A stretch of DNA of 46,017 bases, from the sequence record NC_073056.1; one strand, written 5' to 3'. The stretch is from Escherichia phage rolling. The notes beneath the pieces are model-generated. The model made no database searches. It was not told the DNA's origin and saw only the letters and a program-made list of their open reading frames with translations. The translations under genes were made by a program, and so were the position numbers. Shown here piece after piece: positions 1,709-32,730 of the stretch. Position 1 is the first letter of the stretch, and the number at the start of each line of letters is the position of its first letter.

Positions 1709-1929
1709 TTTAAACTCTCAATAAGGGTGTAACGGGCGCTTCGCGCAGTAAAGGAGTTGCACACGAAATGGCAACGCTGAGTCATGACAAGCCAACCGGT
1801 GAGGTCAAGGCCCAGGATGTATTCGGGGCGAGACGCGCGCACCACACGATTGCGTCGCTGGTCAATACCGTAGTCTTTTTGCATTTGGTCTACTACCGCT
1901 GGGTCGCGGTCAACGATTAAGATATTCAA
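1705..1929 (-). CDS. Hypothetical protein (74 aa)
   Basis: ORF track; non-ATG start preceded by AAGGAG-like RBS; translationally coupled to next gene. Confidence 0.5.
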   Translation of the reverse strand: MNILIVDRDPAVVDQMQKDYGIDQRRNRVVRASRPEYILGLDLTGWLVMTQRCHFVCNSFTARSARYTLIESLK

Positions 1930-2395
1930 GGAGTTCTCCTTCGCTCATTATTTCAATTTGTGCGCTGCTGGTGGGCGGCGCTTCGTCAAATATTATCAAT
2001 TGCTGGCACTTATTATTGCTCGGCCCAACTTCGCCGGTCACAGCATGGATGAATCGCACACGCCAGTCCAGAAGAATTATCATATTGGCAGTCTTCCGGG
2101 CCAGCTTCGCCCACTTCGTCGACGTGTCCTGATTCAGTAGCATGACAGTACGGCGACCGTGCGCAGCGCACTCGACCCACGGCAGCGGATCGGAGTACGG
2201 CGGATTGCACCACTTCCACCCTTTCAACTCTGACCAGTCCGCCTCAAGCGCGCTATGCTCTGCCGTGAAGTAACGCGGCAGCAGGTGATTGGCGTCGCTT
2301 GCCGCCATATCGTAACGGAATCGGTACTTGCGGCGCAGCGGTTTAAATAAAGCTGGCGGCGTGCGCCAGCTATCCTTTTGCTCATTCTTCGTCAT
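1910..2395 (-). CDS. DNA N6-adenine methyltransferase, phage Dam family
   Basis: N-terminal WRTPPALF...FRYDMAAS and catalytic NPPY (WCNPPYS) motifs; start taken at internal ATG (M14 of track ORF 1910..2434). Confidence 0.8.
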   Translation of the reverse strand: MTKNEQKDSWRTPPALFKPLRRKYRFRYDMAASDANHLLPRYFTAEHSALEADWSELKGWKWCNPPYSDPLPWVECAAHGRRTVMLLNQDTSTKWAKLARKTANMIILLDWRVRFIHAVTGEVGPSNNKCQQLIIFDEAPPTSSAQIEIMSEGELLEYLNR

Positions 2396-2834
2396 GGTCG
2401 GGGGATATCGCGTAAAGGGCAATTTTCTTATCACTGTTTAATATGCGTAGTATGCGCTTTGACACCTCGGCGCTAAGCGCATACCGGTGTAATTCTTCGC
2501 GGCCCAGCCACCCTACCGGAACCAGATCTTTCCGGTCGATCTTAGACTGGCGACCTTTGGGGCGCACGTACTCCTCGGCCCGTTTGCAATGCTCACGCAG
2601 CCCGTCGGCAGTGATGCGGTTTAGTGCAACGCTGGTGGTGTATCCGGTGCGCTGCATAATCCCCATCAATTCGAATAGCAGTTCGAAGCGATCCTCTAAC
2701 TCATGGCGCACTTTCTTCTCGCCTTCATATAGCGCCTGGTTGGTGTCTGCCAGCGCGTTCGCGCGTTCGACCTGTTCGCGGGCTTCGAGGCATTGCGCGG
2801 CCCAGTAATTTTTCTCTTCTTGTAAAATTTTCAT
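2382..2834 (-). CDS. Hypothetical protein (150 aa, coiled-coil-like)
   Basis: ORF track 2382..2876; start moved to internal ATG (M15) with GGAG RBS. Confidence 0.65.
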   Translation of the reverse strand: MKILQEEKNYWAAQCLEAREQVERANALADTNQALYEGEKKVRHELEDRFELLFELMGIMQRTGYTTSVALNRITADGLREHCKRAEEYVRPKGRQSKIDRKDLVPVGWLGREELHRYALSAEVSKRILRILNSDKKIALYAISPDHDEE

Positions 2835-2887
2835 CGTGTTGTCTCCAGGTATTAAAAAGGGCGTCCAACCGGACACCCTTAAGATAA

Positions 2888-2914
2888 TGCAACCAATCTA
2901 ATTACGCAACCAAT
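2888..2914 (-). promoter_or_regulatory. Direct pair of GCAACCAAT motifs upstream of gene 2382..2834
   Basis: TGCAACCAAT 2888-2897 and CGCAACCAAT 2905-2914; a GC hairpin (~2856-2877) follows in the 5' leader. Confidence 0.45.
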
Positions 2915-3238
2915 TTATTCATAAAAATTCGGGTCGCGCGCTACATCTACCAGATAAAGGTTGCTCATTCGGTTGCCGTAGTGCCCTGGCGTGCGCTGGC
3001 GACACACAACTGCGAAGCCTGGAGGGATTGTATTGCCGGTTTCGATAATCCACGCCACGCGCGCGCCAGACAGCTTCTTGCCGTTGCATTCGATACGCGT
3101 ACCGCCATCGGCAGTGTTAAGGTTGCCAATCTTGCTGCCGGTGGACTTAAGGCGAATAACGCCGGTCTTGCTGTCGTAGGAGAATAACTGGTTAGTCATT
3201 GCGACCGAGAAGTCGATGGCTTCGAATGTAGTATTCAT
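2915..3238 (-). CDS. HNH-endonuclease-like protein, apparently degenerate (107 aa)
   Basis: SYDSKTG...NGKK...ARVAW...GNTIPPG pattern resembles HNH_3 homing endonucleases, but the expected His (HRxxW) and DH residues are replaced. Confidence 0.5.
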   Translation of the reverse strand: MNTTFEAIDFSVAMTNQLFSYDSKTGVIRLKSTGSKIGNLNTADGGTRIECNGKKLSGARVAWIIETGNTIPPGFAVVCRQRTPGHYGNRMSNLYLVDVARDPNFYE

Positions 3239-3930
3239 TTTAAATTTCCCTCATTGACTGCTATTGCGAAGCCGCGCGGAGTGAGCGACCGTATTAATTT
3301 GGTGCGGGCAGATTTGCCACCGAGGCGACTATACTGCTTCGAGTACCCTTTTTCAACGAATACCGGCTTTTTCTCCGGCATACGAAAGCCGTTGCCGGTC
3401 CATAAACAGGTCAGCTTTGGATATGAATCGCGGTCGTTGATGTATTCTGGGAACAACGGGTGCGCGTCATCCTCCGGCAGATAGCCGCCATACTCCCACG
3501 GGTCAAACGAGTGGTCTGGCTTGCGCCACTGGGTGGACAGCACACTGCGCGGATTCTCAATCATATATGGCACTTCAAAGAAGTCACCCAGGTAAGCGGC
3601 AATCTTCGCGGTGCGCACGGCCTTAAGCTGAAAGGCGGGGTCTTTCGCACGCTTACGCGGGAACGCGGGCGCACCGCTCACCGCCAGATCCGTGCACGGT
3701 GGGAAAGCGTAGATGACGTCTGGCGTACCAAAATCGCCATTCATAGCGCGGTCTACGAAGTCCAGATCGATAAACTCATTGCGATAGCGGATGCCACGCC
3801 CATAGATACGGTAGTCGAGGTAAGACCCGTGATCGGCTTCGGAGTAGTTGAAACAGTAGCATTTATGCCCCATCTCGGCAGCACGCTCTACCATCAAGCC
3901 GCTGCCGTCAAATAATGACCAGATAATCAC
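3235..3930 (-). CDS. Compact DNA (cytosine-5)-methyltransferase-like protein (231 aa)
   Basis: Motif I-like SLFDGSG, motif IV-like FPPCTDLAVSG, motif VI-like MIENPRSV in canonical order; shorter than typical C5-MTases. Confidence 0.55.
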   Translation of the reverse strand: MIIWSLFDGSGLMVERAAEMGHKCYCFNYSEADHGSYLDYRIYGRGIRYRNEFIDLDFVDRAMNGDFGTPDVIYAFPPCTDLAVSGAPAFPRKRAKDPAFQLKAVRTAKIAAYLGDFFEVPYMIENPRSVLSTQWRKPDHSFDPWEYGGYLPEDDAHPLFPEYINDRDSYPKLTCLWTGNGFRMPEKKPVFVEKGYSKQYSRLGGKSARTKLIRSLTPRGFAIAVNEGNLK

Positions 3931-5351
3931 TTGCGCACCTTCTTAGCTTTCATGTATTCCATCAAATCGTCCTGAATATCGCGCTTACCGTCGCGGCGGT
4001 CTGCCACCAGTTCGTCCAGTGTCCCGCGTGCCTGGATAATGTAGACGAATACCGGTCGAGGGTGTCCGGCTTGCATCTGGCGTACCGGCCCGATACGCTC
4101 CACGATCTGCGCAAAGTGCTCATAGTTCCACGTATCCGAGAAGATAGCCAGGTGATGACCGCCGTCCTGCAAGTTGAGGCCGTGACCCGCCGATGCTGGG
4201 TGTGCGAACATGATGGGGATCTCGCCCCTGTTCCACGCTTCCACATCCTTATTGCCCTGCTTGCCTTTACCCATCGCAACGCCGTGGGGAAACTTCTTCT
4301 TCAGACGTGCCAGGTCGTGCTTGTACTGATACGCAACGAGCAACGGCGCGCCGTTCAACTCTTCTACGATACTTTCCAGCGCGTCCAGCTTGGCGTCGTG
4401 AATCTTCACCCACTCGTCGGTCCGTTCGCCGTCCTCGTCTACCTTATACACGGCACCGGAAGCAAGCTGGAGGCACTTGATGGTCTTCGCCGCAGCGTTC
4501 GCCGCTTCCACTGTTCCGCTTTCCAGTTCGGCAAATAGCTCGCTCTCAAACTGGTCGTAAATCTTGCGGGCTTTCTTCGGCAGGTCCACAACAACCGGCG
4601 TGTAGATGGGCTTGTCACATCCGAAGTATTCAGCCGCGTCCACGGTAAGGGATACATCGGACAGGCGTTGTTGGATCTCCTTCTCGGAGTTCTTGAGCGG
4701 GGCGTGCTGCATAGTGAAGCTGCCGGGTTTAACAGGCTTGCTAATAAACCAGCGATCGGTGAATGCTTTATAACTACTACCGAGGCGTTCTCCACCGTCG
4801 ACAAACCACGTCTGCCCCCATAAGTCCTTCAGTCCGTTTGGTGCAGGTGTGCCGGTAAGGTTAATCCAACGATTGACGTGCTTATGTGCGATCGCCGCCA
4901 GTGCGCGTGCGCGCTTACTACCCTGCTTACTTCGGTAGCCTTTCAGCTTAGTGGATTCATCGGCAACAACGACCGTAAAGGGCCACTCGTCGCCGTAATA
5001 CTCGACAAGCCACTCAACCACATCATAGTTAACGCAAACCACGTTAGCGTTGCTCTCAAGCGCTGCAATGCGGTCTTTCTCTGGTCCGGTGCCGTCTACT
5101 ACCAGCAGGGCTGGGAATCTCCATTTTTCTTGTTCCGGGGGCCACGTACCTGACGCAACGCGCAGCGGGGCTAGCACCAGTACGCGGTCTTCCTGGTTGG
5201 ATAGGATGCCAGTCTGGAACATTTTGTTGAGCGCCCACATAGTCGCGCCGGTTTTACCAGACCCCATTGTCGCCCAAATATTACAACGTTCGTGCTTGAG
5301 AATAAACGCGGTTATCAATTTCTGATATTCGCGACGTCGGAAGCGTGCCAT
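3927..5351 (-). CDS. Superfamily 2 (SNF2/DEAD-like) helicase
   Basis: Walker A TMGSGKTG, DExx box VVADEST; start at internal ATG M31 of track ORF 3927..5441. Confidence 0.8.
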   Translation of the reverse strand: MARFRRREYQKLITAFILKHERCNIWATMGSGKTGATMWALNKMFQTGILSNQEDRVLVLAPLRVASGTWPPEQEKWRFPALLVVDGTGPEKDRIAALESNANVVCVNYDVVEWLVEYYGDEWPFTVVVADESTKLKGYRSKQGSKRARALAAIAHKHVNRWINLTGTPAPNGLKDLWGQTWFVDGGERLGSSYKAFTDRWFISKPVKPGSFTMQHAPLKNSEKEIQQRLSDVSLTVDAAEYFGCDKPIYTPVVVDLPKKARKIYDQFESELFAELESGTVEAANAAAKTIKCLQLASGAVYKVDEDGERTDEWVKIHDAKLDALESIVEELNGAPLLVAYQYKHDLARLKKKFPHGVAMGKGKQGNKDVEAWNRGEIPIMFAHPASAGHGLNLQDGGHHLAIFSDTWNYEHFAQIVERIGPVRQMQAGHPRPVFVYIIQARGTLDELVADRRDGKRDIQDDLMEYMKAKKVRK

Positions 5352-5355
5352 ATCT

Positions 5356-5580
5356 TTATTCCGCCTTTTTCCAGACTTCGGTTTCACTGTTCCAATTCCT
5401 CTTTGTGGCGTCGTAGTTGGTGTCGTGTCCGATGTGCACACCGGTCGAGCGGAAGCTTTTAAACTTCTGCCAGCACACCGTCAACGGCAGCGGGTCATTC
5501 ATGCCTGCGATAAACCACACGCGATCACCTGGTTTGCACTCGCCCAGCTTGGTGAGTCGGTAATGTTCTTTCATCGTCAT
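5356..5580 (-). CDS. Hypothetical small protein (about 74 aa)
   Basis: C-terminal part of track ORF 5356..5787 from internal ATG (M70); upstream part overlaps a better Zn-ribbon ORF in another frame; weak RBS. Confidence 0.4.
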   Translation of the reverse strand: MTMKEHYRLTKLGECKPGDRVWFIAGMNDPLPLTVCWQKFKSFRSTGVHIGHDTNYDATKRNWNSETEVWKKAE

Positions 5581-5617
5581 GTATCCCAAAAATGGCGGGA
5601 CAAGCCCGCCGTATTGA

Positions 5618-5791
5618 TTATTCTTGTTCTGCGCGATAGCGGCGCTGCCTTTCACGCTCTTTCTTATTGCGGCACGATTTGCACTCGGCCCGATGACCGT
5701 CTGGACTGCGCGCAGTCTTGCCGGTGTATTTGTGGAACTGGGATAGCGGCTTGATGCATCCGCAATTACTGCAACGTTTTTCTTCAATCAT
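5618..5791 (-). CDS. Zinc-ribbon protein (57 aa; CSNCGC...CKSC)
   Basis: Four Cys in two CxxC pairs; internal ATG (M21) with GAGGA RBS; GCAACCAAT motif at 5848-5856 upstream. Confidence 0.5.
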   Translation of the reverse strand: MIEEKRCSNCGCIKPLSQFHKYTGKTARSPDGHRAECKSCRNKKERERQRRYRAEQE

Positions 5792-5831
5792 TTCTAAAAT
5801 CCTCGATAGTGCTAACCGGCACACTATACCG

Positions 5832-6110
5832 CTACGCGACCAATTCAGCAACCAATAAATTGCAGTCGGCTATGTTGTCTATAACGCGAACGTCAGCACC
5901 GCGGCGGGCCATCCGTTCATGTTCTCGCACCTGGTGCGGCTTCGGTTTTCCGCCGGGGCGCTTCACTTCGACGAATACTACTCTGCCGTTTATGATAATA
6001 ATCAGGTCGGGCGCACCTGCGCGCCCCTCCCATGCCAGTTTGCGGCAGAATCCGCCAACGGCTTTTACCAGCTTCATCAGGTGACTTTGTATCTTGCCTT
6101 CTGGAGTCAT
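5832..6110 (-). CDS. VRR-NUC domain nuclease
   Basis: PD-(D/E)xK-like GAPDLIIIINGRVVFVEVKRPGGKP signature; ATG start; ATGA overlap with next gene. Confidence 0.75.
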   Translation of the reverse strand: MTPEGKIQSHLMKLVKAVGGFCRKLAWEGRAGAPDLIIIINGRVVFVEVKRPGGKPKPHQVREHERMARRGADVRVIDNIADCNLLVAELVA

Positions 6111-6298
6111 TTGGTTTGCAACTCCACGTTACGCAGACGTAGATCTACCGGTATGTCAGATCGACCGGTTAGCGCCAGCGCCAGGTTTTCAGGCGTGACA
6201 AGTGCCGTAATGGTCTTGCCACGTTCCAGTCTAAGGACGATGCGAATCTCGGCATCGTCCGTCGCGCCAGCGCGCATTATGCTCATTTCTGCTTTCAT
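6107..6298 (-). CDS. Hypothetical small protein (63 aa)
   Basis: Track ORF 6107..6343 from internal ATG (M16) with AGGAAG RBS. Confidence 0.45.
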   Translation of the reverse strand: MKAEMSIMRAGATDDAEIRIVLRLERGKTITALVTPENLALALTGRSDIPVDLRLRNVELQTK

Positions 6299-6302
6299 AA
6301 TC

Positions 6303-8594
6303 TTACTTCCTGTACCGGTACATAATGTCGCCTTCGGCGGCAAGTGGGAAACCTTTCGCCCATATAGGCAGGTCGCACATCAGCGCGCAAAGCTCCTCGG
6401 TCGTGTAGTCGTCGGTGTCCGGCACTTCCGTGATCAATTCATCGTGCACTGACAGGACGATTTCATAGCCCGCAGCTTCAACACCAGGCATGGACCATGC
6501 GAGAATATCGCGGCACAACGCCTGTACGATGTTCTCCGTAAGTTTGCCGCCGTAGGTGTACTGGAATCCCCACTGGCGCGTCGTCTGATTCTCGCCCTGG
6601 TATTTGATGCGGGTACTGGTGCGCTTCTTGCCGGTGTCTTCGTCAATTTCAGTCGTGACAGACAGCGCGATGCCGGGGTAGCTCATGATGCGCCCCGACG
6701 GCAACTCAATTTTCAACCACCACCCCGCGGCGTTCGGGTCGTCGCGCTCCTCGTCGAAGGTTGGGTCGTGCTTCGCCTTCGTGCGCACAATCTTGAGCGC
6801 TTTCCTACCGTCCGGGCGAACGTTCGCGCCAGCCCAGTATGCTTTACCCGGATTGCGGATTGCACACAGCACCGCTTCCTCAAGCTCGGCCCAAAAGGCT
6901 ACGGTCTTCGGGTGCGACTCACGCCACATACGTTTGATCGCGTCGCAGGTCAACCACACGTTTTTAGGCAGTATGTAGGTTGGGCGCTCGTCTTTCTTGC
7001 CAGGCTTCGGCGGGCGCTTCGCTTCGTTGATGCGGGCAAACTCATAGCCACGCTTCGCCGCCGCCCAAATGTGATCGGGGAATGTTCCCTTCATTACGTC
7101 AGCCATCGCGTACAGGTCGAGGCCCAGGTTTTTAGCGAACTGCAAGAACGCAGCAACGCCGCCACCATATCCCAGTCCCAATTCACACGCCTTACCAATC
7201 TGGCGTAGGTCTTTGCGGTTGGCCTTGATGTAGTCCGGGTCGAGGCCGAACATCTTACCGGCAGTTTCACAATAGATATCGCGTCCGGCCTTAAACACCA
7301 TTAGCGCGGTTTTCTCGCCCGCGATCCAGGCAAGGCCGCGCCCTTCCACGTTGGAGTAGTCCGCTACGACAAACTTCTTGCCCTTAGCCGGGATAATGCA
7401 CCCGCGAACGGTCGAGGCGGTTAGCTTCGATATGTCATACGCCCAGTGTGCGGTACCGCGTAACAGGGAGTTGATGCCGTTGGTGAGCATATGAGATCGG
7501 ACCCAAAACGAAACGTCGCTCTCACCTTCTCGGCGCTTAATCTTCCCTTCGTGGTCATCACTGTACTCGCCACGTGCCAGGTTTTGAGGCTGAAAGCCTT
7601 TACCGGCCCAGCGTAGTGTGCGCTTTGCCCCACCGTACTGAAGACAACCACGGCGGCGACCATCGGCAGACAGGCCATTTACGAGCGGATTGTATTTAGT
7701 CGATGCCGTTGATGACGCACCGAGGCGCATCTCAATAAGCACTTTGCCCTCGTCGGGGAAGTCTGGATCTTCCAGCAAGTCATTCAGCGTGGATTTCTGC
7801 GCGTTGTGAATTGTGAACGCCGGGGCAATATCACGCAGGATTGGCAGGAAGTCATTGCCAGTCAGCTTACCGCCGAACAGTTCCCAGGCTTCTTCCTTCA
7901 ATTCCTCTTTATGCACCTGCACCGCCTTGATCGCGGCGTTAGCCAGGTCAACGTCCACATAGAAGCCACGGTCGTTAATCAACTGGTCAATAAGCAGGAT
8001 TTCGTCTTCCTTCGGCGTGTTACCCCAGTCCGGTATGCGCCAGTAGACTTCACGCATTGCGATAATATCCAGCGCGGCATAGCGCAGGAATTTAGCCCAT
8101 TCTTCCGGGTGTGTGTCGCGGGTGTAGCGGCGGATTTTGTAGGTCTTAGGGGTAGGCTTACAGAATCGTTTGATCAGCGCCTTGCCAGCCTTATCCTTCG
8201 CGTGCTCTGCGTCAACGCCCAGTACCCGGCATTGCATATCAAGACTACCCGGCAGCGCATGTCGGAAGGCCATAATCATGGTATCTTCGATCTGGCTTAC
8301 CGGCAGGTCAATACCCCACTTTTCACGGATAACCAGGCGGTCAAACAGGAGGCCGTTCGCCATCACTATTTTTGCTTTTTTGCGGGTTACCTGGCGGAGC
8401 GCCTTGCGTAGTTCACGCGGCATCGTGGGAGATTCAGTGGCGTCCCATGTCTGCACGCGGCCCTCGTCTATGGCGTAGGTGCAAATCATAATCTCGGTGG
8501 TGGGGTGTTCCGCGTAGGCATACGCACCTGCTTTCTTCAGGTCCACCCCGCTAAACGTCTCGGTGTCGAGAAATAGGCGTTCGAAGTCTTTCAT
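6303..8594 (-). CDS. DNA polymerase, family A, with 3'-5' exonuclease domain
   Basis: Exo I motif FLDTETFSG; Pol motif A DYSNVEGR, motif B KACELGLGYGG, motif C SVHDELITEV. Confidence 0.95.
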   Translation of the reverse strand: MKDFERLFLDTETFSGVDLKKAGAYAYAEHPTTEIMICTYAIDEGRVQTWDATESPTMPRELRKALRQVTRKKAKIVMANGLLFDRLVIREKWGIDLPVSQIEDTMIMAFRHALPGSLDMQCRVLGVDAEHAKDKAGKALIKRFCKPTPKTYKIRRYTRDTHPEEWAKFLRYAALDIIAMREVYWRIPDWGNTPKEDEILLIDQLINDRGFYVDVDLANAAIKAVQVHKEELKEEAWELFGGKLTGNDFLPILRDIAPAFTIHNAQKSTLNDLLEDPDFPDEGKVLIEMRLGASSTASTKYNPLVNGLSADGRRRGCLQYGGAKRTLRWAGKGFQPQNLARGEYSDDHEGKIKRREGESDVSFWVRSHMLTNGINSLLRGTAHWAYDISKLTASTVRGCIIPAKGKKFVVADYSNVEGRGLAWIAGEKTALMVFKAGRDIYCETAGKMFGLDPDYIKANRKDLRQIGKACELGLGYGGGVAAFLQFAKNLGLDLYAMADVMKGTFPDHIWAAAKRGYEFARINEAKRPPKPGKKDERPTYILPKNVWLTCDAIKRMWRESHPKTVAFWAELEEAVLCAIRNPGKAYWAGANVRPDGRKALKIVRTKAKHDPTFDEERDDPNAAGWWLKIELPSGRIMSYPGIALSVTTEIDEDTGKKRTSTRIKYQGENQTTRQWGFQYTYGGKLTENIVQALCRDILAWSMPGVEAAGYEIVLSVHDELITEVPDTDDYTTEELCALMCDLPIWAKGFPLAAEGDIMYRYRK

Positions 8595-8761
8595 TGCTTT
8601 ATCCTCACTACGGCGTCAGCGCTGCCGATCATGGAGAAGATTCCGTCGGAAAGGGCAATCTCTTCGCCGTTGTTGCGAATCTCGGCAACGGTAAAATACT
8701 CGCCCAGCAATTTGGACCACACACGCATTCCGACTTTTACTTCACTGGCTTTAATACGCAT
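8591..8761 (-). CDS. Hypothetical small protein (about 56 aa), translationally coupled to DNA polymerase
   Basis: Read by eye (below track cutoff): MRIKASEVKVGMRVW...; stop overlaps pol ATG in ATGA; AGGA RBS. Confidence 0.45.
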   Translation of the reverse strand: MRIKASEVKVGMRVWSKLLGEYFTVAEIRNNGEEIALSDGIFSMIGSADAVVRIKQ

Positions 8762-8773
8762 TTTTCATTGTCC

Positions 8774-8801
8774 TAATAAAAAGCCCGCATTAAGCGGGCT
8801 T
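8774..8801 (-). terminator. Intrinsic terminator/attenuator between SSB gene and polymerase
   Basis: Minus-strand hairpin AAGCCCGC/GCGGGCTT followed by U-rich tract. Confidence 0.5.
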
Positions 8802-8819
8802 GAATAGTGGGCTTTGCCC

Positions 8820-9599
8820 TTAACGGCGGCGACGTTTACGTGGTGCTTCGTCTTCGTCGTCTTCGTCCTCATCTTCGTCATCGCGGGACTTACGACGTTT
8901 ACGCGGCTTATCGTCTTCATCGTCGTCATCTTCATCACGGCGGCGCTTAGACTTGCGCGGTTTTTCATCTTCATCATCGTCGTCACGACGTTTTGACTTT
9001 TTGGATTTACGCGGTGCTTCGTCTTCGTCATCATCCAGGTCGTCGTCAGAGCAATATGCACCGCCGCCGCCACCGAAGGAATCCCCATCATCACGGAAGC
9101 GCATACCCAGCAGACCACAGCCTAAGCCTTTGCCGTTGGTATTGTTCCAGGCCCAAATATCTAAGGAAACGTTGCAATAGCAACCGGAATAGATTTCTTT
9201 CCCTTCGATTTCGTCGCCGTCGATGGTCAGACCCTGCTCCGTCTGCTTCTCGCCTTCGGAAGTCTGGATGATCGGCTGTTTGAATGATTTAGCGTTGATA
9301 TACAGCTTACCTTCAAACTCTTCCGTTACTTCTTCACGCTCATCACCATCTCGAACGGCACATTCTTTCGAATCCTGCGCGTAGTGGCGGTCCATCCACT
9401 TATCGGCGTTCTTCTCAGACTTCAGTTTTTCGGTGAGCACTGCGCGTGCCGCCGCTTCCACTTTGTCCACCTGCGGATCTTCTTTATCAAGAATAATCAC
9501 CGCACGATATGCCGGTTTTTGTCCATCCTGTTTAGGGGTATCACGCTCCCAAATTTTCAGGAAGCATACACGTACATTTTTCAGGTTGACTTTAGCCAT
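8820..9599 (-). CDS. SSB-like protein, DUF2815 family, with unusual alternating acidic/basic C-terminal tail
   Basis: N-terminus MAKVNLKNVRVCF...GQKPAYRAVIIL resembles DUF2815 phage SSB; start at internal ATG (M32) with GAGGA RBS; last ~76 aa are D/E blocks alternating with PRKxKxRR blocks. Confidence 0.7.
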   Translation of the reverse strand: MAKVNLKNVRVCFLKIWERDTPKQDGQKPAYRAVIILDKEDPQVDKVEAAARAVLTEKLKSEKNADKWMDRHYAQDSKECAVRDGDEREEVTEEFEGKLYINAKSFKQPIIQTSEGEKQTEQGLTIDGDEIEGKEIYSGCYCNVSLDIWAWNNTNGKGLGCGLLGMRFRDDGDSFGGGGGAYCSDDDLDDDEDEAPRKSKKSKRRDDDDEDEKPRKSKRRRDEDDDDEDDKPRKRRKSRDDEDEDEDDEDEAPRKRRRR

Positions 9600-9654
9600 T
9601 TTCCAATTCCTCATTTCACATGTATCGGGGTTATTAGAAGCCACCCCGTCCGGC

Positions 9655-9678
9655 TTGGTTGCTAATGTACTTGGTTGC
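9655..9678. promoter_or_regulatory. Pair of TTGGTTGC motifs in SSB upstream region
   Basis: TTGGTTGC at 9655-9662 and 9671-9678, between membrane protein gene and SSB gene. Confidence 0.4.
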
Positions 9679-9695
9679 GTTTCCGCGGTCAAGTG

Positions 9696-9929
9696 TTATT
9701 TATCAAAAAGTTTTAAAATCAGGTCGAGATATTTGTGCAGCCACACCAGTGGTGGGCGGTGCACGTTGTTTCCCATCCAGTTCAAACAGGCTTCGTTATA
9801 GCCGTCGTCCCATAAGCGGGATGGGTGGCGAATCATCCAGGCCAGCGCCAGCAGACCGCCGCAGGTATGTACTACGAATCCCAGCGCCGCAAGCGGCAGC
9901 ACCATAATCATTGCCAGAATCTTATTCAT
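9696..9929 (-). CDS. Small membrane protein (77 aa)
   Basis: Internal ATG (M43 of track ORF 9696..10055) 3 nt after upstream stop; hydrophobic ILAMIMVLPLAALGFVV... segment. Confidence 0.5.
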   Translation of the reverse strand: MNKILAMIMVLPLAALGFVVHTCGGLLALAWMIRHPSRLWDDGYNEACLNWMGNNVHRPPLVWLHKYLDLILKLFDK

Positions 9930-11352
9930 CGCCCAAATCCTCGTCGCTTGCTTCTTGCCATTCCGGGCGCGGGTCGTCAACTGGTGCCAGGACCGGTTTC
10001 GCCGGCGCACGCGTGATTTTATCTTGCAGTTTCGCCCACACTTTCGGTTTCTCATCCTTCAGCACCTTCTCGGCATCAGTAGGGCTGATTAATGATTCCT
10101 TGTACATCAGGTCGCGCTTGATCCGGGCCGTTGTGAATACAGCGATAACTTCGCTTTCATCCTTCCACTTACGCGCACCTTCACGACCAGCTACCAGCTT
10201 CAGGCCCAGCGCTTCGCCGTCACCGGCTAACACTGCTTTGAATACGGCAGTCTCGATCGCTTTGATGTGCTGGCGCATGGTTTCCAGGCCGTCGTAAGCC
10301 TTCTTCAGTTCTTCCGTGGTCATAGCACCGGCTGGCGCTTCTTTCTTGCCACGCTTCGCACGTCGGGCAGCTTTCCGGGCTTCGAGGTCCATGTTCTGGT
10401 CGTGGTTTTTGCATTCTTCCTCGGCGGCAATGCTTACATCGTCGCCCAGGTCTTCGTCGGTTGCCGTTGGTGGCGTCATTGTGTCGATGGCGGCTTTAGC
10501 GCGGGAACTACATTGGTCCGCAAATCGACACCACTGACACGCATCGGCGCTCGGACGGAAGTCTGCACGGGTGAGATTCTTCTTACCCTTAGCGAGGGCA
10601 TCCAGGGCGGCTACTGCGCGTTTTGCTGCGTACTTGGCGAAGATTTCCAGTGCTTCCACCGAAATATCCCACTCCGACGCCCCGCCGCAATACGGCTGGA
10701 ATATGACCAGGCGCACGGTTGTTATGTCGTACATCTTTTGCAGCTTGCGCAGCAGTCCGAGCGCATACAGCATAAGCTGTTTGTTCTCTTTCGCCTCGAC
10801 CTTATGGCGCCCGGTCTTCAGGTCGCCCACAATGAGCATGTACGTGCCGTCGGTCTTCTTCATTACCATAACCATATCGGCAGTACCGAAGGTCTTGATC
10901 GCTTCGCCGTCAATCTCGTAGCCTTTGTGCAGGACGCGAGTCAGATCCGCGCGCATCTCAAGCTGTACAAACTCGGCAACTTCAAGCAGCGGTCGCCAGT
11001 GGTCGATGTACGCGTCGCACTGTTTCACCATGTCGTCAGTTACCAGGATGGCGTCCTTAGGTGCTTTAGCTGCCGCTTTAACTGGTCCTTTACCCTGATT
11101 TTCGACGTAGCACCCTTTATATGTCTTCGCCGTGATGTGGTCTTCGCCTGCAATGATGCGGTTTAGTACCACTTCAGATACGGTGTGCATACTCGTACCG
11201 TTGATCGCGGCTTGCCCGGATTCGTTCGGAATACCTTTCTCCACCACCAGGGCGGCGGGACACCCCATCCATTTTTTAGCGCCGGATGGGCCGAGTAATG
11301 AGTGTTCTGTATTACTGCCGGATTGCGTCTTGCGCTTCGCTTTGATAGCCAT
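9922..11352 (-). CDS. PD-(D/E)xK nuclease, DUF2800/Cas4-like (phage exonuclease)
   Basis: N-terminal LLGPSGAKKWMGCP, GDLKTG, C-terminal Cys cluster CQWCRFADQC; conserved neighbour of DUF2815 and pol A. Confidence 0.75.
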   Translation of the reverse strand: MAIKAKRKTQSGSNTEHSLLGPSGAKKWMGCPAALVVEKGIPNESGQAAINGTSMHTVSEVVLNRIIAGEDHITAKTYKGCYVENQGKGPVKAAAKAPKDAILVTDDMVKQCDAYIDHWRPLLEVAEFVQLEMRADLTRVLHKGYEIDGEAIKTFGTADMVMVMKKTDGTYMLIVGDLKTGRHKVEAKENKQLMLYALGLLRKLQKMYDITTVRLVIFQPYCGGASEWDISVEALEIFAKYAAKRAVAALDALAKGKKNLTRADFRPSADACQWCRFADQCSSRAKAAIDTMTPPTATDEDLGDDVSIAAEEECKNHDQNMDLEARKAARRAKRGKKEAPAGAMTTEELKKAYDGLETMRQHIKAIETAVFKAVLAGDGEALGLKLVAGREGARKWKDESEVIAVFTTARIKRDLMYKESLISPTDAEKVLKDEKPKVWAKLQDKITRAPAKPVLAPVDDPRPEWQEASDEDLGDE

Positions 11353-11540
11353 TATTCGACCCTCGTAAATTGAGCAATATAATAATCATGCTTAATTCCT
11401 GCTTTCGCCGCGGCGTTATTCATTGTCGCTGCCAGTTCTTTCGCTTGCATCCAGCAACAATTCCAGTTCTGATTCATAATTATTTCCGGCTGTTCGTCGC
11501 CGGTGTTACGGCAGCGAAATAAAACAAAGAAAATACTCAT
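11352..11540 (-). CDS. Hypothetical small protein (62 aa)
   Basis: Internal ATG (M6 of track ORF 11352..11555); TAATG overlap with upstream gene. Confidence 0.4.
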   Translation of the reverse strand: MSIFFVLFRCRNTGDEQPEIIMNQNWNCCWMQAKELAATMNNAAAKAGIKHDYYIAQFTRVE

Positions 11541-11791
11541 TATGGCGTCTCCCAACGGTCAATAGTTTTTGCTTCAGATCCAACTGCAAAGCGAACATAT
11601 TCATGATTCGAGTCCGCCCATAAATAAAAGTCTGGATTAGCGAAGGTCGTGCGTTTAATTTGTGCCGGTGTTTCCCGCTTCTTACTAATTACGGCAACGC
11701 GCGATTGAAATGGGCCGGTGCGTTCGAATAGCCAATAATAAGGGCGCTGGTCGCGTGAATCCACCGCCTCGATTAGCGTGAAGCGTGCCAT
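11540..11791 (-). CDS. Hypothetical protein (83 aa)
   Basis: ORF track; GAGGA RBS. Confidence 0.6.
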   Translation of the reverse strand: MARFTLIEAVDSRDQRPYYWLFERTGPFQSRVAVISKKRETPAQIKRTTFANPDFYLWADSNHEYVRFAVGSEAKTIDRWETP

Positions 11792-11839
11792 TATCTCGTC
11801 CTCTAAAAATAGGCCCGCAGATTAGCGGGCCGGATAATA

Positions 11840-12358
11840 TTAATCTTCTAATTCGAAATACGTTTCTACGATTTCTTTTAAATCTTTGTGGAAGTCTTCG
11901 ACGTCGTCATCTTCCAGCTTGGCGACGGATTTAATTTCGAACGCTTCCAGCAGATCATCAAATTCGTCGTTTGCGTCGTCGTCATCTCCGCCCGCAATAA
12001 TAGCGGCATACTGTTTGATTTCGTCGCGCATTTCTTTAAGCGGATCGGCATCTTTCTTGCCTTTGCCTTTCGCCGGTGCTTTCTTAGATTTCGCCGGGGC
12101 TTCTTCCTCGTCCGCGTCGTCGTCTTCTTCTACGGCTTCTTTCTTAGCCTTGCCCTTTGCGGGCGCTTTTTTGGTCTTTGCCGGGGCTTCGTCTTCAGCA
12201 TCGTCATCTTCGGCTACTTCTTCTTTCGCCTTGCCCTTTGCCGGGGCTTTCTTCGCTTCCTGTTTACCAACGGCAGCGCCAGCAGTTTCATAATGCTTAG
12301 CGATGGTTTCCAGTGCTACAACGCCGCGAGTGATCAGGTTTACGATTTGCTCAAACAT
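11840..12358 (-). CDS. Charged low-complexity protein with three KKAPAKGKxKK / acidic repeats; first leftward early gene
   Basis: ORF track; ATG with GGAG RBS; repeats EEVAEDDDAEDEAPAKTKKAPAKGKAKK x3. Confidence 0.7.
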   Translation of the reverse strand: MFEQIVNLITRGVVALETIAKHYETAGAAVGKQEAKKAPAKGKAKEEVAEDDDAEDEAPAKTKKAPAKGKAKKEAVEEDDDADEEEAPAKSKKAPAKGKGKKDADPLKEMRDEIKQYAAIIAGGDDDDANDEFDDLLEAFEIKSVAKLEDDDVEDFHKDLKEIVETYFELED

Positions 12359-12628: not shown

Positions 12629-12958
12629 ATGCATATCAACGACGCAATCGAAATGTTAACCAATGCTGTTAGCGGTGAGACAAGCCGGTCCTGGGCTTAT
12701 ACCGATGCCGTGGGTGAGGTGCTATTTGAAATCGAACGTCTGCGCAGTGTCGAAAAAGAATTGCGCGCCAAGCTGGAATTGCTAAACGGTACGGCAGCAA
12801 GCAAGTTGCAAAAGCACAACGAAGAAATGGAAGAATACAAAAAGCAGGTTATCCGTTTACGCGACGAGGGCAAGTCCTGGGCGATGATTGCCGAGTTGAC
12901 AGGAATTAATCAGAGCACCGTACGCTCATGGGTACGCAATAATAAAACTTCTAAATAA
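12629..12958 (+). CDS. HTH DNA-binding regulator (109 aa)
   Basis: C-terminal helix-turn-helix SWAMIAELTGINQSTVRSWVRN; ATG with AGGAG RBS. Confidence 0.75.
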   Translation: MHINDAIEMLTNAVSGETSRSWAYTDAVGEVLFEIERLRSVEKELRAKLELLNGTAASKLQKHNEEMEEYKKQVIRLRDEGKSWAMIAELTGINQSTVRSWVRNNKTSK

Positions 12959-12968: not shown

Positions 12969-15230
12969 ATGAGAGATTATTTAATTGAGTTCGGCACCGT
13001 CGGCGGTAAATACGGCAAACGTGTTAAAAACCATTCTATGACTGAAGCCGAGTTTATGGAATACGTCGCTGATACCGTTGAATTATCCAGCGTAACCATT
13101 ACCGGCGACGAGACTAAGAAAGAATACGACGAGGTGAAAGGCAAGGCGGAAGGCATTGTCGCCACCACTAAAGGCCGGGGACGTCGTGCTACGGAAGTGG
13201 GTGTCCGTTCCGTACTGTTCTATGACCTGGACCGCACTGACAACCGTACCCTCGGTCGCGTTAAGCGTGCCTTTCGCAAATCCGGCTTATCCCACGTCTA
13301 CTACTCCACTACAGGCGACCGCCACCCGCTGAAGGGCGGCACACGTTGCGCCCGTTTCCTGGTGCTCACTGATAAACCGGTTGATGTTTCCGATTTAGGC
13401 CGTGCGCAGTTCGCACTATTGAAACACCTGGGGCTGGAAGACGTGCCGTTTGATGATTGCACAAAAAACGTTAACAACCTGCAATTCCTCCCCCATTCCG
13501 GATCTACCGTGTCGTGTCATCCTGGCACGCCAGCCCGTGTCCGTCGTCTGCTTCGCCTGGCTGACAAGCTGGGAGTGGAGAAAGAGGAAGTACGCCGCGA
13601 ACTGACCCAGGGCGACGATGGCGTGGCGGACGGGATTCTGGATTGGTGCTTCCAGGCTGGCTTTGAACCACTGTCATCCGGTCGCGGTTATGAAGTGCCG
13701 TGCCCGAACGAGCACCTGCATAGCGGCGGCGGGTCGACGGCTATCATGGTTAAGGATGGCGAGATCCGTTTCAAGTGTATGCACACCGGAAACGAGTGCT
13801 GTTCCGAACTGAACAGACACCAGCACCTGGCGCTACGTCTTATAGGGATCCCGGACCACCTGAACGTCGAACCGCACAACATGTCACGTAAGCAAATCGC
13901 CGCCATTCTCCCTGGACTGGACGACGAGGAAGTCGAATCGTGCTATGAACATATTGTTGATGCAGTTGGCGACGGCGAAGAATACGGCGTGTGCACCGAT
14001 GCGGATCTGGATAACGAGCCGGTCGCACTCTTCAGTAAGCACGACCCGATCATAGAAGGCCTGGTAAACTTCAAATCGACCTGGTACATGGCTGGCGAGT
14101 CGAACATCGGTAAATCGTTCTACGTGCTGGGGCAAATGGGCGCGGTTGCCGCGGGGATTCCGTTCGGTGGCGCGAAGGTAGTCCAGTCTCATTGCTTCTA
14201 TTTCGACGCGGAAGGTGGTGAAGCCTCCAACCAGCGTAAAGAAGCATTGCAGATTAAATACGAGCACGACCTGGACAAGCTGCACATTATCGATCTGCAA
14301 TCACGCGGCTGGGATATCACCAGCAAATCCGGCTTGCGTGAAGTTATCAGCTTCATCAACCGCACCGCTAACGGCGAGCCGGTTGGCCTGGTGGCGTTCG
14401 ACTCACTCAACCAGACTGTTGCGCTGCGGTCCGCCGATGCAAAACCGTTCGACGAGAATAACGCCAGCGATATGGGTGAAGTGGTCAAAGCGCTGAAGGC
14501 CATTGCGGAAAATACAGGCGGCAGTGCGGGCGTCATCCACCACCCAGCGAAGGGTGCAAACGGCAGCAGATCTCCCCGTGGGTCCGGCGCGCTTCATGGT
14601 GCTGTTGATTCTGCGTTCTTCCTGGAACAGCCGGATGACAACCAGCCAGGCCAACTCAACCTGTATCACGAAAAATCCCGTAACGGGATTAAGCAAGCGC
14701 CGCGTGGCTTCGTCCTGCTCAAATGCAAGGTGAAGGTGGATCTCCGTAAGTCCGAGGCGTTCGAAGCCCACCAGTCCACCAGCACCGGTCCGGACTTCGG
14801 CGATGTGGTTGCCGGTTGGGACGTCAAGCCAATTGCATCCACGCCACGCGACGAGACTCTCTACCTCGTACCGGTCGCCCTGGCACCGTTCGCTATCGAA
14901 CAGGCGAAGGCGGCTGGCAAGGCAGCAGTTAAGGAAGAGAACACCGCCGGTCCGCGCAACGAAAAAGAGAAAGTGCTTTATGCGGCGCTGGAAAAACTGA
15001 TGGAAGATAACCCGGACCATACCGGATTCAGTAAATCGGCAATTGTCCGCCAGGCAGGGCTGGCAAAAGGTGGCACTTCGACGAAGGCAATCGACGATAT
15101 GGTGGAGCGCGGAGTGATAGGTTTTTACACCGATCCGCACACCGGGGCCATCTATGGGTCGTCTAATTTGGTCATAAAAACGAATATACCCATCACGCTT
15201 TCGGCGACCGATGACGACCTGAAAGATTAA
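12969..15230 (+). CDS. Primase-helicase replication initiator (primase-polymerase N-domain, RecA-like ATPase, C-terminal winged-helix-like region)
   Basis: Walker A GESNIGKS, RecA-like AFDSLNQ / VIHHPAKG segments, C-terminal HTH-like tail. Confidence 0.85.
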   Translation: MRDYLIEFGTVGGKYGKRVKNHSMTEAEFMEYVADTVELSSVTITGDETKKEYDEVKGKAEGIVATTKGRGRRATEVGVRSVLFYDLDRTDNRTLGRVKRAFRKSGLSHVYYSTTGDRHPLKGGTRCARFLVLTDKPVDVSDLGRAQFALLKHLGLEDVPFDDCTKNVNNLQFLPHSGSTVSCHPGTPARVRRLLRLADKLGVEKEEVRRELTQGDDGVADGILDWCFQAGFEPLSSGRGYEVPCPNEHLHSGGGSTAIMVKDGEIRFKCMHTGNECCSELNRHQHLALRLIGIPDHLNVEPHNMSRKQIAAILPGLDDEEVESCYEHIVDAVGDGEEYGVCTDADLDNEPVALFSKHDPIIEGLVNFKSTWYMAGESNIGKSFYVLGQMGAVAAGIPFGGAKVVQSHCFYFDAEGGEASNQRKEALQIKYEHDLDKLHIIDLQSRGWDITSKSGLREVISFINRTANGEPVGLVAFDSLNQTVALRSADAKPFDENNASDMGEVVKALKAIAENTGGSAGVIHHPAKGANGSRSPRGSGALHGAVDSAFFLEQPDDNQPGQLNLYHEKSRNGIKQAPRGFVLLKCKVKVDLRKSEAFEAHQSTSTGPDFGDVVAGWDVKPIASTPRDETLYLVPVALAPFAIEQAKAAGKAAVKEENTAGPRNEKEKVLYAALEKLMEDNPDHTGFSKSAIVRQAGLAKGGTSTKAIDDMVERGVIGFYTDPHTGAIYGSSNLVIKTNIPITLSATDDDLKD

Positions 15231-15339
15231 TTTGTGCGCGTATTGGTTGCCGATATGGGAATTCCCATATCGCTAAAAGATTAAATTTTGCGCGCATTGG
15301 TTGCCATTTTGGGTGTTTTTAGCTGGTCGCATTGGTTGC
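15222..15339 (+). repeat. Tandem duplication of primase 3' end with three ATTGGTTGCC motifs and a 22-bp perfect palindrome
   Basis: AAAGATTAA..GCGCG.ATTGGTTGCC at 15222-15251 and 15276-15305 (~27/30 identical); palindrome CGATATGGGAATTCCCATATCG at 15251-15272; third ATTGGTTGC at 15331-15339. Confidence 0.7.
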
Positions 15340-15371
15340 CGTGTAGTGTAAATATAGTGAATAGTTATGCA

Positions 15372-15547
15372 GTTTTATTGCATAAAGTAAGCGGGACAAA
15401 AAGCGGGACAAACATGGGGCGGGACAAAGCGGGACAGCACCCCCTGTCCCGCCCGGATGGCGCGGCTTGCGGAGGAGCGGGACAGGCGGGACAAACCTCA
15501 GTCTTTCAGACTAGACGGGGTCAGTTGGCCCCCCTCGTCTGAGACTG
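15372..15547 (+). repeat. Iteron array 1: GCGGGACA x7 with TGCATAA motifs and conserved ~50-bp imperfect hairpin
   Basis: GCGGGACA at 15391, 15403, 15419, 15429, 15477, 15487 plus inverted TGTCCCGC at 15445; hairpin 15499-15547; AT-rich stretch just upstream. Confidence 0.85.
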
Positions 15548-15701
15548 CATAAAATCCGGGATTGCATAACGCACGGCAGCATGATGTGAATTGCGGTCGT
15601 CGATGAACTAGGCAACCAATGCGTGTTGAATAATGGAGAGTGAAAAATGCAGTTTGCAGTTGCAGCAGATAGCGATCAACTTTTTCATACGCATGATTAA
15701 T

Positions 15702-15742
15702 ATTGGTTGCATTCAGCCTGGCACCCTGCTAGATTGGTTGCA
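15702..15742 (+). promoter_or_regulatory. Promoter-like element with two ATTGGTTGCA motifs upstream of gene 15764
   Basis: ATTGGTTGC 15702-15710 and ATTGGTTGCA 15733-15742; TTGCAT-N17-TAGATT reads as a sigma70-like promoter. Confidence 0.45.
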
Positions 15743-15763
15743 CACCAACAAGAGGATTGAACA

Positions 15764-16090
15764 ATGAGAGCATTAATCTGGAATTACTCACTGGCAATGG
15801 CGAAGGCACAAGAAGCGGCGGAGTTCGCCGGTGAGGGGGCGGAAGCGGTAGAAAGACTATCGGCAGCGTGGTCCGTTGTTCGCGTCACGCAGCAGGCCAT
15901 CGCCTGTATGCTGGAGCGCCGCTTCGACACGATGGAAGAGATCCAGCCGCTGGCTTCTGCCATCCAGGACTACGCGCTTGCATTCGCCCGTGAGCGCCTG
16001 GCCTATCGCCTCGGTATTGGCGAGAAGGCATTGGCAAACGTCGCCCGGATTAAAGCCCAGCGCGAACTATTCGCCAAGCTTGCGAAATAA
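15764..16090 (+). CDS. Hypothetical protein (108 aa)
   Basis: ORF track; ATG with AGAGGA RBS. Confidence 0.7.
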   Translation: MRALIWNYSLAMAKAQEAAEFAGEGAEAVERLSAAWSVVRVTQQAIACMLERRFDTMEEIQPLASAIQDYALAFARERLAYRLGIGEKALANVARIKAQRELFAKLAK

Positions 16091-25229: not shown

Positions 25230-25362
25230 ACCGCCTTGCACATTTGAGAATGCCTCGGCAGACCCAGACGAAGACTTGCTTGTTGATGTTAAAAATATGG
25301 AGTGCGGATCTAAGCTGCGGGCGCAAGTGCTGGAGTTGCAGAAAATAATTCTGGGGCCGTGA
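25132..25362 (+). CDS. o-spanin (Rz1-like lipoprotein), overlapping Rz in +1 frame
   Basis: Signal peptide with lipobox LSAC, Pro-rich mature part; ATG with AGAGG RBS. Confidence 0.75.
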   Translation: MLRVLTVLIVVLMLSACGSSKAPSTPLTESVYRPPCTFENASADPDEDLLVDVKNMECGSKLRAQVLELQKIILGP

Positions 25363-25379
25363 TGGCCCCCCTTTTGTTA
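25340..25379 (+). terminator. Terminator hairpin, left copy of a 40-bp direct repeat
   Basis: AGAAAATAATTCTGGGGCCGTGATGGCCCC + T-run; GGGGCC/GGCCCC stem, Rz1 stop codon in the loop. Confidence 0.7.
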
Positions 25380-25893: not shown

Positions 25894-25915
25894 TTTCATT
25901 TCCTCGTGGTTATGT

Positions 25916-25955
25916 AGAAAATAATTCTGGGGCCGTGATGGCCCCTTTTTTGTTA
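25916..25955 (+). terminator. Terminator hairpin, right copy of the 40-bp direct repeat
   Basis: 30/30 identical to 25340-25369 then T6; duplicates the last codons of Rz1 plus the hairpin. Confidence 0.7.
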
Positions 25956-32336: not shown

Positions 32337-32661
32337 GCGGGACGGATCGGGACGTCCCGATTTGTCCCGTTTTGTCCCGCCCCCAGTAAAACTGCATACC
32401 TACCCACTTTCATTGCATAAACTCAAAGCGGGACAAGCGGGACGCCCCGATCCGTCCCGCCCATTAAATGTGCATACCTATTCAGATCTCGTGCATAAAA
32501 CAAACGGGACAAAAAGCGGGACAAACATGGGGCGGGACAAAGCGGGACAGCACCCCGTCCCCGTCAGTGCTGCCGCGGGTTTTAGCCGATCGGGACAGGC
32601 GGGACAAAGCCCAGTCTTTCAGACTAGACGGGGGTCAGTTGGCCCCCCTCGTCTGAGACTG
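32337..32661 (+). repeat. Iteron array 2: GCGGGACA-type repeats (>=14 copies) with TGCATAA motifs and the same conserved hairpin
   Basis: Copies at 32337, 32347, 32428, 32437, 32516, 32532, 32542, 32599 and inverted copies; palindrome CGGGACGTCCCG 32348-32359; ~52-bp and ~65-bp blocks near-identical to array 1; hairpin 32612-32661. Confidence 0.85.
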
Positions 32662-32730
32662 AATAAGGTTTGTTTGAAATTCGCTGATACAATGTCAATC
32701 GGCAACTGCATAAAAAAAGGGGACTGCATA

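Follow-up and report, generated by a model that had tools for sequence, protein, structure and literature searches.

The 46,017-nucleotide stretch analysed here, from Escherichia phage rolling (NC_073056.1) and hereafter called the window, contains a primase-helicase gene that is followed by an AT-rich stretch, an array of short repeats and a long imperfect hairpin, together termed module A; a second copy, module B, lies in the tail operon (Table 1). The best GenBank match of the window is phage CHD5UKE2 (94%), and the window represents all or nearly all of a Dhillonvirus genome, that of an HK578-like E. coli siphovirus. The gene layout was derived from the annotated HK578 and Ioannina genomes, with which the window was compared, and from domain scans of the window. 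A preliminary description had read module A as an iteron origin of replication bound by its own initiator, the primase-helicase.

Module A combines repeats, an AT-rich stretch and a conserved hairpin

Exact motif counting found seven copies of GCGGGACA within 103 bp, six direct and one inverted, and the array begins 160 bp past the stop codon of the primase-helicase open reading frame (ORF), just 3' of the gene as had been described. The unit positions given in the preliminary description held except for the last direct copy, which starts at 15486 and not at 15487, and the proposed spacing of about one helical turn applies to most units but not to all of them (12, 16, 10, 16, 32 and 9 bp). In the whole window the exact GCGGGACA occurs 17 times against 1.9 expected, a number reached in none of 100 shuffles, and the most that any single 8-mer attained per 110 nt in 30 shuffles was three copies, never seven.

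The flank at 15345-15390 that had been called AT-rich is 76% AT compared with 46% window-wide, ranking within the top 0.04% among 46-nt windows, and it flanks the array on the 5' side instead of occupying its centre. Its box region contains the palindrome TTATGCA-N7-TGCATAA. The TGCATAA motif, also noted earlier as a flanking element, occurs 14 times in the window against 4.3 expected, and 8 of the 14 copies fall inside modules A and B. The AT-rich stretch with its pair of boxes is a candidate DNA unwinding element and/or a candidate site for a host factor.

Two structures were examined by folding. The GC stem formed by the fourth and fifth units reaches -10.7 kcal/mol (z = -5.0), and the annotator of phage CS16 labelled the equivalent inverted-pair stem 'terminator'. 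The imperfect hairpin of about 50 bp that had been noticed further downstream was borne out, since either strand, folded as DNA, gives a single long imperfect stem-loop (-11.4 and -13.5 kcal/mol; z = -2.9 and -4.1), and it is nearly invariant within the genus, with changes mostly in the loop. A T-run is missing from both the 9-bp GC stem and the long hairpin, no terminator was called on the + strand across 15100-15900, and module A does not fit the intrinsic terminator pattern. No sigma70 promoter was called inside array A, and no Rfam 15 family reached the gathering score anywhere in the window. The TGCATAA pair and conserved motif that follow the hairpin form the right border of a variable cassette. 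The repeats, the AT stretch and the hairpin are far beyond chance.

Table 1. Coordinates of the modules, of neighbouring genes and of reduced modules in related loci
Feature	Position	Strand	Details
Replication/recombination genes	1-12358		leftward
Divergent promoter region	~12.4-12.6 kb
Helix-turn-helix (HTH) protein gene, 109 aa	12629..12958	+	opens rightward early operon; Pfam HTH_23/HTH_28/Sigma70_r4_2
Primase-helicase gene, 753 aa	12969..15230	+	PHROG 3228 'replicative helicase-primase'; Pfam AAA_25
C-terminal winged-helix coding segment (predicted)	14961..15176	+	residues ~665-736; proposed repeat reader
Module A, whole	15345-15581		3' of primase-helicase gene
AT-rich stretch with two ARG-box-like 18-bp sites 3 bp apart	15345..15390		sites 15356-15373, 15377-15394
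Array A, seven GCGGGACA units	15391..15493	+ and -	+ 15391, 15403, 15419, 15429, 15477, 15486; - 15445
Inverted unit pair, 9-bp GC stem	15429..15452		GCGGGACAG-CACCCC-CTGTCCCGC; fourth and fifth units
Imperfect hairpin/palindrome, 49 nt	15499..15547		CAGTCT..CAGAC..GGGG-loop-CCCC..GTCTG..AGACTG
TGCATAA-N10-TGCATAA and conserved CACGGCAGCA	15546..15581	+	TGCATAA at 15546, 15563; CACGGCAGCA 15572-15581
Tail assembly chaperone gene	31641 to ~32330		followed by 400-bp gap
Module B partial units B1, B2	32337..32460		CGGGAC(A/G), direct and inverted
Module B full unit B3	32469..32661	+	ARG-box-like site 32469-32486; seven CGGGACA units 32504-32606; 50-nt hairpin 32612-32661
Extended -10-like element TGaTACAAT	32685..32693	+	~40 nt 5' of tape-measure start codon
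Tape-measure gene	32731-35376		start codon 32731
Reduced modules of related loci	L140:6640-6990; L143:6260-6500; L145:6700-7000; L147:5990-6250		2-3 units, GC hairpin, ACGGCAGCA, promoter

The primase-helicase ends in a predicted winged helix

In an AlphaFold2 model the primase-helicase has a confident N-terminal alpha/beta domain, a helicase core (residues 356-556), a disordered linker of ~90 residues (570-659) and a C-terminal domain. The core is of the RepA/DnaB type (Pfam AAA_25), and its best Protein Data Bank (PDB) match at low root-mean-square deviation (rmsd) is RSF1010 RepA, with a template modelling (TM) score of 0.65 and an rmsd of 3.7 A. A fold search with the full-length model matched the helicase core only, and the C-terminal domain was modelled alone. 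This domain of ~75 residues shows an H-H-H-beta-beta topology at a predicted local distance difference test (pLDDT) score of 81-91, and its leading fold matches are, without exception, DNA-binding domains of the winged-helix kind (MarR family including MepR-DNA complexes, histone H1 and the ORC2 winged helix). The domain is predicted to be a winged helix, in agreement with the preliminary description of the C-terminus. It is 95-99% conserved across 145 dhillonvirus records and is the most variable primase-helicase domain between lineages.

Residues 1-340 (12969-13990) contain an invariant DxD (D86, D88) and a cluster of cysteines and histidines (C245, H251, C270, H272, C278, H284, H286). The N-terminal half matched nothing in Pfam or among PDB sequences; it could represent a domain of the primase-polymerase type that includes a zinc module.

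Related modules carry different repeat units

A module-type layout follows the homologous gene in Guernseyvirinae and metagenomic phages, in which the primase-helicases are 38-49% identical. In these distant loci the parts come in the order TGAATAGTTATGCA-type box pair, array, compound hairpin, ACGGCA(G/A)CA / ACGGCAGCA and strong sigma70 promoter. The distant arrays consist of six to ten short units, few of them inverted, and at least eight unit types occur overall: CGGGACA in Dhillonvirus and a 67%-identical lineage, GGGGGAGA in the Salmonella phages FSL SP-031, Shemara and SE1, CGGACAA in Enterobacter phage phiEap-2, TTGCGAGT in Klebsiella phage VLCpiS11a, and GGGATAA, CCGACA, GGGGATRA and CCGCACA in the metagenomic loci L144, L146, L149 and L344, respectively. 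The hairpin arms change compensatorily in the distant lineages (AGTCT/AGACT, TCCTC/GAGGA, ATCATC/GATGAT, CTCCT/AGGAG), and the hairpin loop of L146 and L168 contains an inverted copy of the repeat of its own lineage. In every lineage ACGGCA(G/A)CA lies past the hairpin and ahead of the downstream promoter; at L145:6895-6945 it is expanded to six tandem TGGCAGCA copies. A scan of IMG/VR with GCGGGACA pairs returned mostly unrelated GC-rich contigs, and the TGAATAGTTATGCA scan required heavy filtering.

The boxes at the 5' edge of the module resemble operators of the host arginine repressor ArgR. The site at 15356-15373 fits the E. coli ARG box consensus (TNTGAATWWWWATTCANW; PMC4865122) at 13 of 16 specified positions and a second, weaker box follows 3 bp on; an ArgR operator consists of two 18-bp imperfect palindromes 3 bp apart (PMC4865122). 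The pair also resembles footprinted Vibrio ArgR sites (PMC11172107). Consensus matches number 6 in the window against 3.4 expected, i.e. they are not enriched, and 2 of the 3 ARG-box-like sites are located in modules A and B. Box pairs were found in the window at 15356-15394 and 32469-32486 and at the equivalent places of L144, L146, L264 and L265, with the 18+3+18 geometry kept in L144, L146, SP-031 and phiEap-2, and TGAATAGTTATGCA is kept in nearly all lineages where the repeats diverge. This conservation suggests a conserved factor, perhaps a host one such as ArgR, which we take as a lead and not as a finding. An ARG-box-like palindrome pair (AGTGAATAGTTATGCAGT and relatives) marks the module's 5' edge in nearly all lineages, even with differing repeats.

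Repeat type and winged-helix type are exchanged together

The relation between the repeats and the primase-helicase was visible in pairs of loci that are closely related except for the cassette. Between L330 and L327 amino acid identity is 96-99% through the linker and 49% in the winged helix, and the repeat is CCGACA in the one and CGGACAA in the other; between L332 and L318 the values are 95-98% and 42%, with GGGGGAGA versus CGGACAA. L333 and L322 are 99% identical in the helicase, 86% in the downstream promoter and 60% in the winged helix (CCGACA versus CGGACAA). At the DNA level, the identity of the swapped pairs drops at about -330 nt, where the winged helix starts, is 80-90% over the box island, drops a second time over the repeats and the hairpin and is regained at ACGGCAGCA.

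Pairs with the same repeat type in differing backgrounds have winged helices that are 64-85% identical, and no mismatched pair of winged helix and repeat was found among the 8 repeat types and 20-plus loci examined. The upstream HTH with the N-terminal domain, and likewise the downstream promoter, each assort independently of repeat type. These comparisons show that repeat type and winged-helix type are inherited as one sharply bordered cassette, the pattern expected of a specificity pair, and lend strong indirect support to the idea that the winged helix binds the array. The small upstream HTH protein was rejected as the reader of the repeats, since the L149 and phiEap-2 proteins are ~96% identical while their units differ.

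The module is duplicated in the tail operon of dhillonviruses

Module B was found at 32470-32666, in the gap separating the tail-chaperone genes from the tape-measure gene, and is preceded by further partial units from 32337 on. Over 164 nt it matches module A at 82% identity and over the hairpin at 97%; in B3 the hairpin folds at -12.7 kcal/mol (z = -3.3). The partial units B1 and B2 are each followed by TGCATAC-N14-TGCATAA (32393/32414 and 32471/32492). B1 fits the intrinsic terminator pattern, and the HK578 annotation has a rho-independent terminator at the equivalent site. The TGaTACAAT element downstream of B3 is kept in the B copies of other dhillonviruses despite varying flanks, which points to a possible internal promoter from which the distal tail genes would be transcribed.

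Among IMG/VR dhillonvirus contigs, 14 of 16 have two exact hairpins / module B and a 15th breaks within module B, and the module is present in all of the matched GenBank dhillonvirus records (n = 157), usually in two places each. Judged from these records the duplication is a genus trait, found in essentially all dhillonviruses; the tape-measure search for module B did not extend to the 67%-identical lineage. The complete genomes of FSL SP-031 and phiEap-2 have one cluster only, 3' of the primase-helicase gene, indicating that this position is ancestral and that the tail-operon copy is a Dhillonvirus addition. In some genomes, including the window, A and B have private spacer variants in common (94% identity versus ~72% to a foreign B), whereas in other dhillonvirus genomes the two remain distinct, indicating that gene conversion between the copies is episodic. 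The CGGGACA cores are fixed in all dhillonvirus copies while the spacers drift.

A mechanically called ORF of 1014 aa starts at ATG 32332 and runs in frame across module B into the tape-measure gene, whose true start is likely 32731; over-extended tape-measure annotations are possible. Small 'hypothetical proteins' annotated within the module in some records (e.g. Shemara gp58 and gp59) are probably spurious.

A proposed origin for a self-loading primase-helicase

From these comparisons we consider it probable, with real room for doubt, that the array serves as the recognition element in the replication origin of a primase-helicase that loads itself. The 753-aa protein would form a hexameric RepA/DnaB-type helicase with one winged helix per subunit, each on a flexible linker of ~90 residues. 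The winged helices would bind the six to seven CGGGACA units, in both orientations, 160 bp 3' of their own gene, and binding would gather and assemble the helicase beside the 76% AT stretch and the long palindrome. There the DNA would open, or extrude as a hairpin, so that the helicase-primase could enter and prime. The TGAATAGTTATGCA box pair might recruit a host architectural factor, ArgR-like by sequence, and the tail-operon copy of dhillonviruses could serve as a second origin or as a cis-acting partner site. Of the earlier proposal of an iteron origin bound by its own initiator, the pairing of winged helix and repeats is supported by the co-swapping of the cassette; binding, DNA opening and initiation at the module are what we infer. 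HK578 mutants that escape the replication-sensing OLD defence affect the helicase-primase gp46 and the gp45-gp46 promoter (bioRxiv 10.64898/2026.07.10.737580), which fits a central initiation role for gp46 and is silent on the site.

Several observations weigh against this proposal. The fold matches of the C-terminal domain have weak E-values (0.015-0.2). The co-inheritance of winged helix and repeats could partly reflect linkage of adjacent divergent blocks, an objection that is weakened, not removed, because a conserved box island separates the winged-helix segment from the repeats, and independent swaps number only 3-4. The window and the 67%-identical lineage have CGGGACA in common with winged helices only ~55% identical, and the winged helices of L144 and L146 are 64% identical while their units differ; the specificity for the repeat must therefore rest on few residues. 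L140, L143, L145 and L147, close relatives of the GGGATAA lineage in which a reverse-strand gene block is inserted after the primase-helicase gene, retain the winged helix but have only 2-3 degenerate units, which are displaced by 1.5 kb, and their reduced modules lie directly 5' of the next rightward promoter. Both modules of the window are likewise followed by a rightward promoter-like element, and the middle of a tail operon would be an unusual place for a second origin. The one DnaA box (TTWTNCACA) in the whole window, against 2.8 expected, is at 17035, and none lies near the AT-rich region. The GC-skew minimum is at ~12 kb and not at 15.4 kb; it coincides with the switch in gene orientation and is hence uninformative.

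Alternative explanations of the module

The promoters next to the modules raise the question of whether the module instead controls transcription of the rightward late genes, with the repeats serving a phage or host regulator as operator- or enhancer-like sites, the GC hairpins stopping or attenuating early read-through, and any winged-helix binding being regulatory. A strong promoter lies 50-200 bp past the module in every lineage, the reduced modules of L140, L143, L145 and L147 stay 5' of a rightward sigma70 promoter after being parted from the primase-helicase, and module B precedes the conserved TGaTACAAT before the tape-measure gene; in addition, parts of the module are terminator-like or annotated as terminators and the box pair resembles ArgR operators. 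However, the promoter region has recombined without regard to repeat type and the C-terminus of the primase-helicase has not, no co-varying regulator gene was found and the small HTH protein is ruled out. From the array to the promoters downstream the distance is 100-250 bp, and no + strand terminator was called in module A. We regard transcription control as rather unlikely to be the function of the module, with the qualification that origins often adjoin promoters and both roles may coexist.

The folding z-scores of -3 to -4, the compensatory changes of the hairpin arms between lineages and the same orientation of both copies relative to transcription would also be expected if the module acted as RNA, either as a cis-acting element such as a put/nut-like antitermination site or as a small RNA, both copies being transcribed rightward. 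A duplex palindromic binding site predicts compensatory changes equally well, repeat units are found in direct and inverted orientation, one strand of the palindromes folds as well as the other and no Rfam family was matched at threshold. Repeat type, moreover, co-varies with a protein domain, the winged helix. A role as RNA is very unlikely on these grounds.

Clustered hexamers are known at packaging (pac) sites such as P1 pac, and the module could accordingly be imagined as a pac or recombination site at which a terminase or recombinase binds the repeats and direct copies recombine. The copies do recombine, as the episodic gene conversion between A and B shows, and one metagenomic contig is broken within module B; repeats are expected to cause assembly breaks regardless. 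Repeat type follows the primase-helicase and not the terminase, the terminase genes lie 5 kb from the module, the relatives have a single copy that is always after the primase-helicase gene, and the annotated genomes contain no integrase or recombinase, so that this explanation is hardly to be expected. On sequence grounds alone we also set aside a sigma54 promoter (the GG-N10-GC spacing is absent), T7-type primase sites (several repeat types lack GTC), a CsrA-sponge RNA (the CCGACA type lacks GGA, and copies are inverted) and, on the antisense strand, a Rho rut site (in the CCGACA type the C-rich pattern is interrupted).

Comparison with known replication systems

The closest experimentally characterised analogue of the proposed primase-helicase origin is Rep/PriRep from the pathogenicity islands (SaPIs) of Staphylococcus aureus. 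SaPI Rep/PriRep5 has a C-terminal winged helix that binds 6-12 penta- or hexanucleotide iterons directly downstream of rep, and the SaPI ori has an AT-rich region and iterons in opposed orientations, with Rep-ori specificity for each island (PMC9371898). In SaPIs the initiator is the helicase, fused to the primase in SaPI5, as we propose for the window protein. The SaPI helicase is SF3/MCM-like AAA+, whereas the window protein has a RecA-fold core of RepA/DnaB type; the AT-rich region is central in the SaPI ori and at the 5' edge in the window, and the window module has a long hairpin, a box pair and ACGGCAGCA in addition, with the second copy in dhillonviruses 17 kb off. No sequence homology of the window system to SaPI Rep/ori was detected.

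The phage P4 alpha protein unites primase, helicase and a C-terminal origin-binding winged helix in one polypeptide and acts at an origin of short iterons. P4 has two separated iteron clusters, ori and crr, 4.5 kb apart, neither of them in a structural operon; modules A and B are similarly two clusters, with a gap of 17 kb and B in the tail operon. The P4 likeness drawn in the preliminary description fails as homology and SaPI Rep/ori is the better analogue: no PDB sequence match to P4 alpha was obtained by single sequence or profile, AAA_25 was the sole Pfam match, the fold comes nearest to RSF1010 RepA and RecA-family proteins, and the window helicase is AAA_25/RepA-like and not superfamily 3 (SF3) as in P4 alpha, so that the window protein is not a member of that family.

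Further likenesses are partial. The plasmid pRN1 has an operon, orf56/orf904, of a small DNA-binding repressor and a multifunctional replication protein, with an essential cis sequence downstream of the replication gene (PMC4234260). The window similarly has an operon of a small DNA-binding protein and a replication gene, with a cis element 3' of the latter. The downstream sequence of pRN1 includes a long stem-loop. pRN1 differs in being an archaeal plasmid whose ORF904 combines a primase-polymerase with an SF3 helicase, and we know of no description of an iteron array in it. The oriV of RSF1010/R1162 has iterons, GC-rich and AT-rich segments and conserved priming hairpins (ssi sites). Its RepA is structurally closest to the window helicase core and its origin likewise mixes iterons, an AT-rich segment and hairpins, but the iteron binder RepC, the helicase RepA and the primase RepB' are separate proteins and the iterons are 20 bp long. 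In Bacillus phage SPP1, the repeats bound by G38P, oriL and oriR, are far apart, one in the late region, and in lambdoid phages the iteron-binding domain of the O protein and the iterons are exchanged together as a specificity cassette. SPP1 thus resembles the window in its two distant repeat clusters, and the lambdoid phages in the co-exchange of binding domain and iterons; in both, the origin binder is separate from the helicase and the primary origin lies inside the initiator gene, not after it. Taken with these systems, the element is best classed among the iteron origins that serve self-loading initiator-helicases, a known kind, here with an SF4/RepA-type motor and a genus-wide second copy.

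Possible significance

Among the coliphages and Salmonella phages isolated most often are the dhillonviruses and the Jersey-like (Guernseyvirinae) phages, which are used for therapy cocktails, the BASEL collection and defence-system screens. We found no account of the element in accessible papers on dhillonviruses, Jersey-like phages and phiEap-2, and no report of where or how dhillonviruses and Jersey-like phages begin replication. The analysis provides a candidate origin with its coordinates and a model that can be tested, for which the natural swaps are ready-made binding controls. If the proposed origin holds, the self-loading initiator-helicase principle known from SaPI Rep, P4 alpha and viral E1/LTag would extend to RecA-fold SF4-type helicases, escape mutants from replication-sensing defences, such as those of HK578 from OLD, would become easier to read, and origins and initiators of orthogonal specificity would be available as phage-engineering parts.

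A larger conjecture, which taken as a whole we hold to be doubtful, is that winged helix, repeats and hairpin form a portable origin-specificity cassette exchanged horizontally among Dhillonvirus- and Guernseyvirinae-like phages, giving each lineage a private origin-initiator pair, that the triple-unit copy in the tail operon is a true second origin or a replication-coupled switch for the distal tail genes, and that ArgR recruited through the ARG-box pair ties phage replication to host arginine status. A portable cassette of this kind would have consequences for competition or incompatibility in co-infection.

Other repeats and genes in the window

Downstream of module A the long rightward unit continues with small genes, lysis genes, the terminase and the head and tail genes. 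A second motif, ATTGGTTGC, is distinct from the array repeat and occurs 16 times in the window against 0.5 expected (1340, 2889, 2906, 5848, 12427, 15242, 15296, 15331, 15612, 15702, 15733, 16288, 18732, 26741, 26755 and 42870). It flanks module A and is mostly intergenic, often paired and overlapping sigma70-like promoter cores genome-wide; the pair at 26741/26755, for example, overlaps TTGCAA-N18-TATATT on the minus strand. ATTGGTTGC has the look of an operator bound by a phage regulator, which could be the HTH_23/Sigma70_r4-like protein encoded at 12629-12958. GCCAACA is found in other lineages at places equivalent to the ATTGGTTGC sites, and at locus L148 a motif of the ATTGGTTGC type (GCAACCAAC, nine copies) occupies the space 3' of the primase-helicase gene.

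Three canonical intrinsic terminators (GGGGCC-loop-GGCCCC followed by a T-run) are present in the structural region at 25337-25379, 25913-25955 and 31601-31643. Repeats within coding sequence, all in frame, encode acidic Asp/Glu-rich segments in two early minus-strand genes (8835-9035 and 12021-12253) and recur as 84-nt units in the tail-fibre gene (43348-43536).

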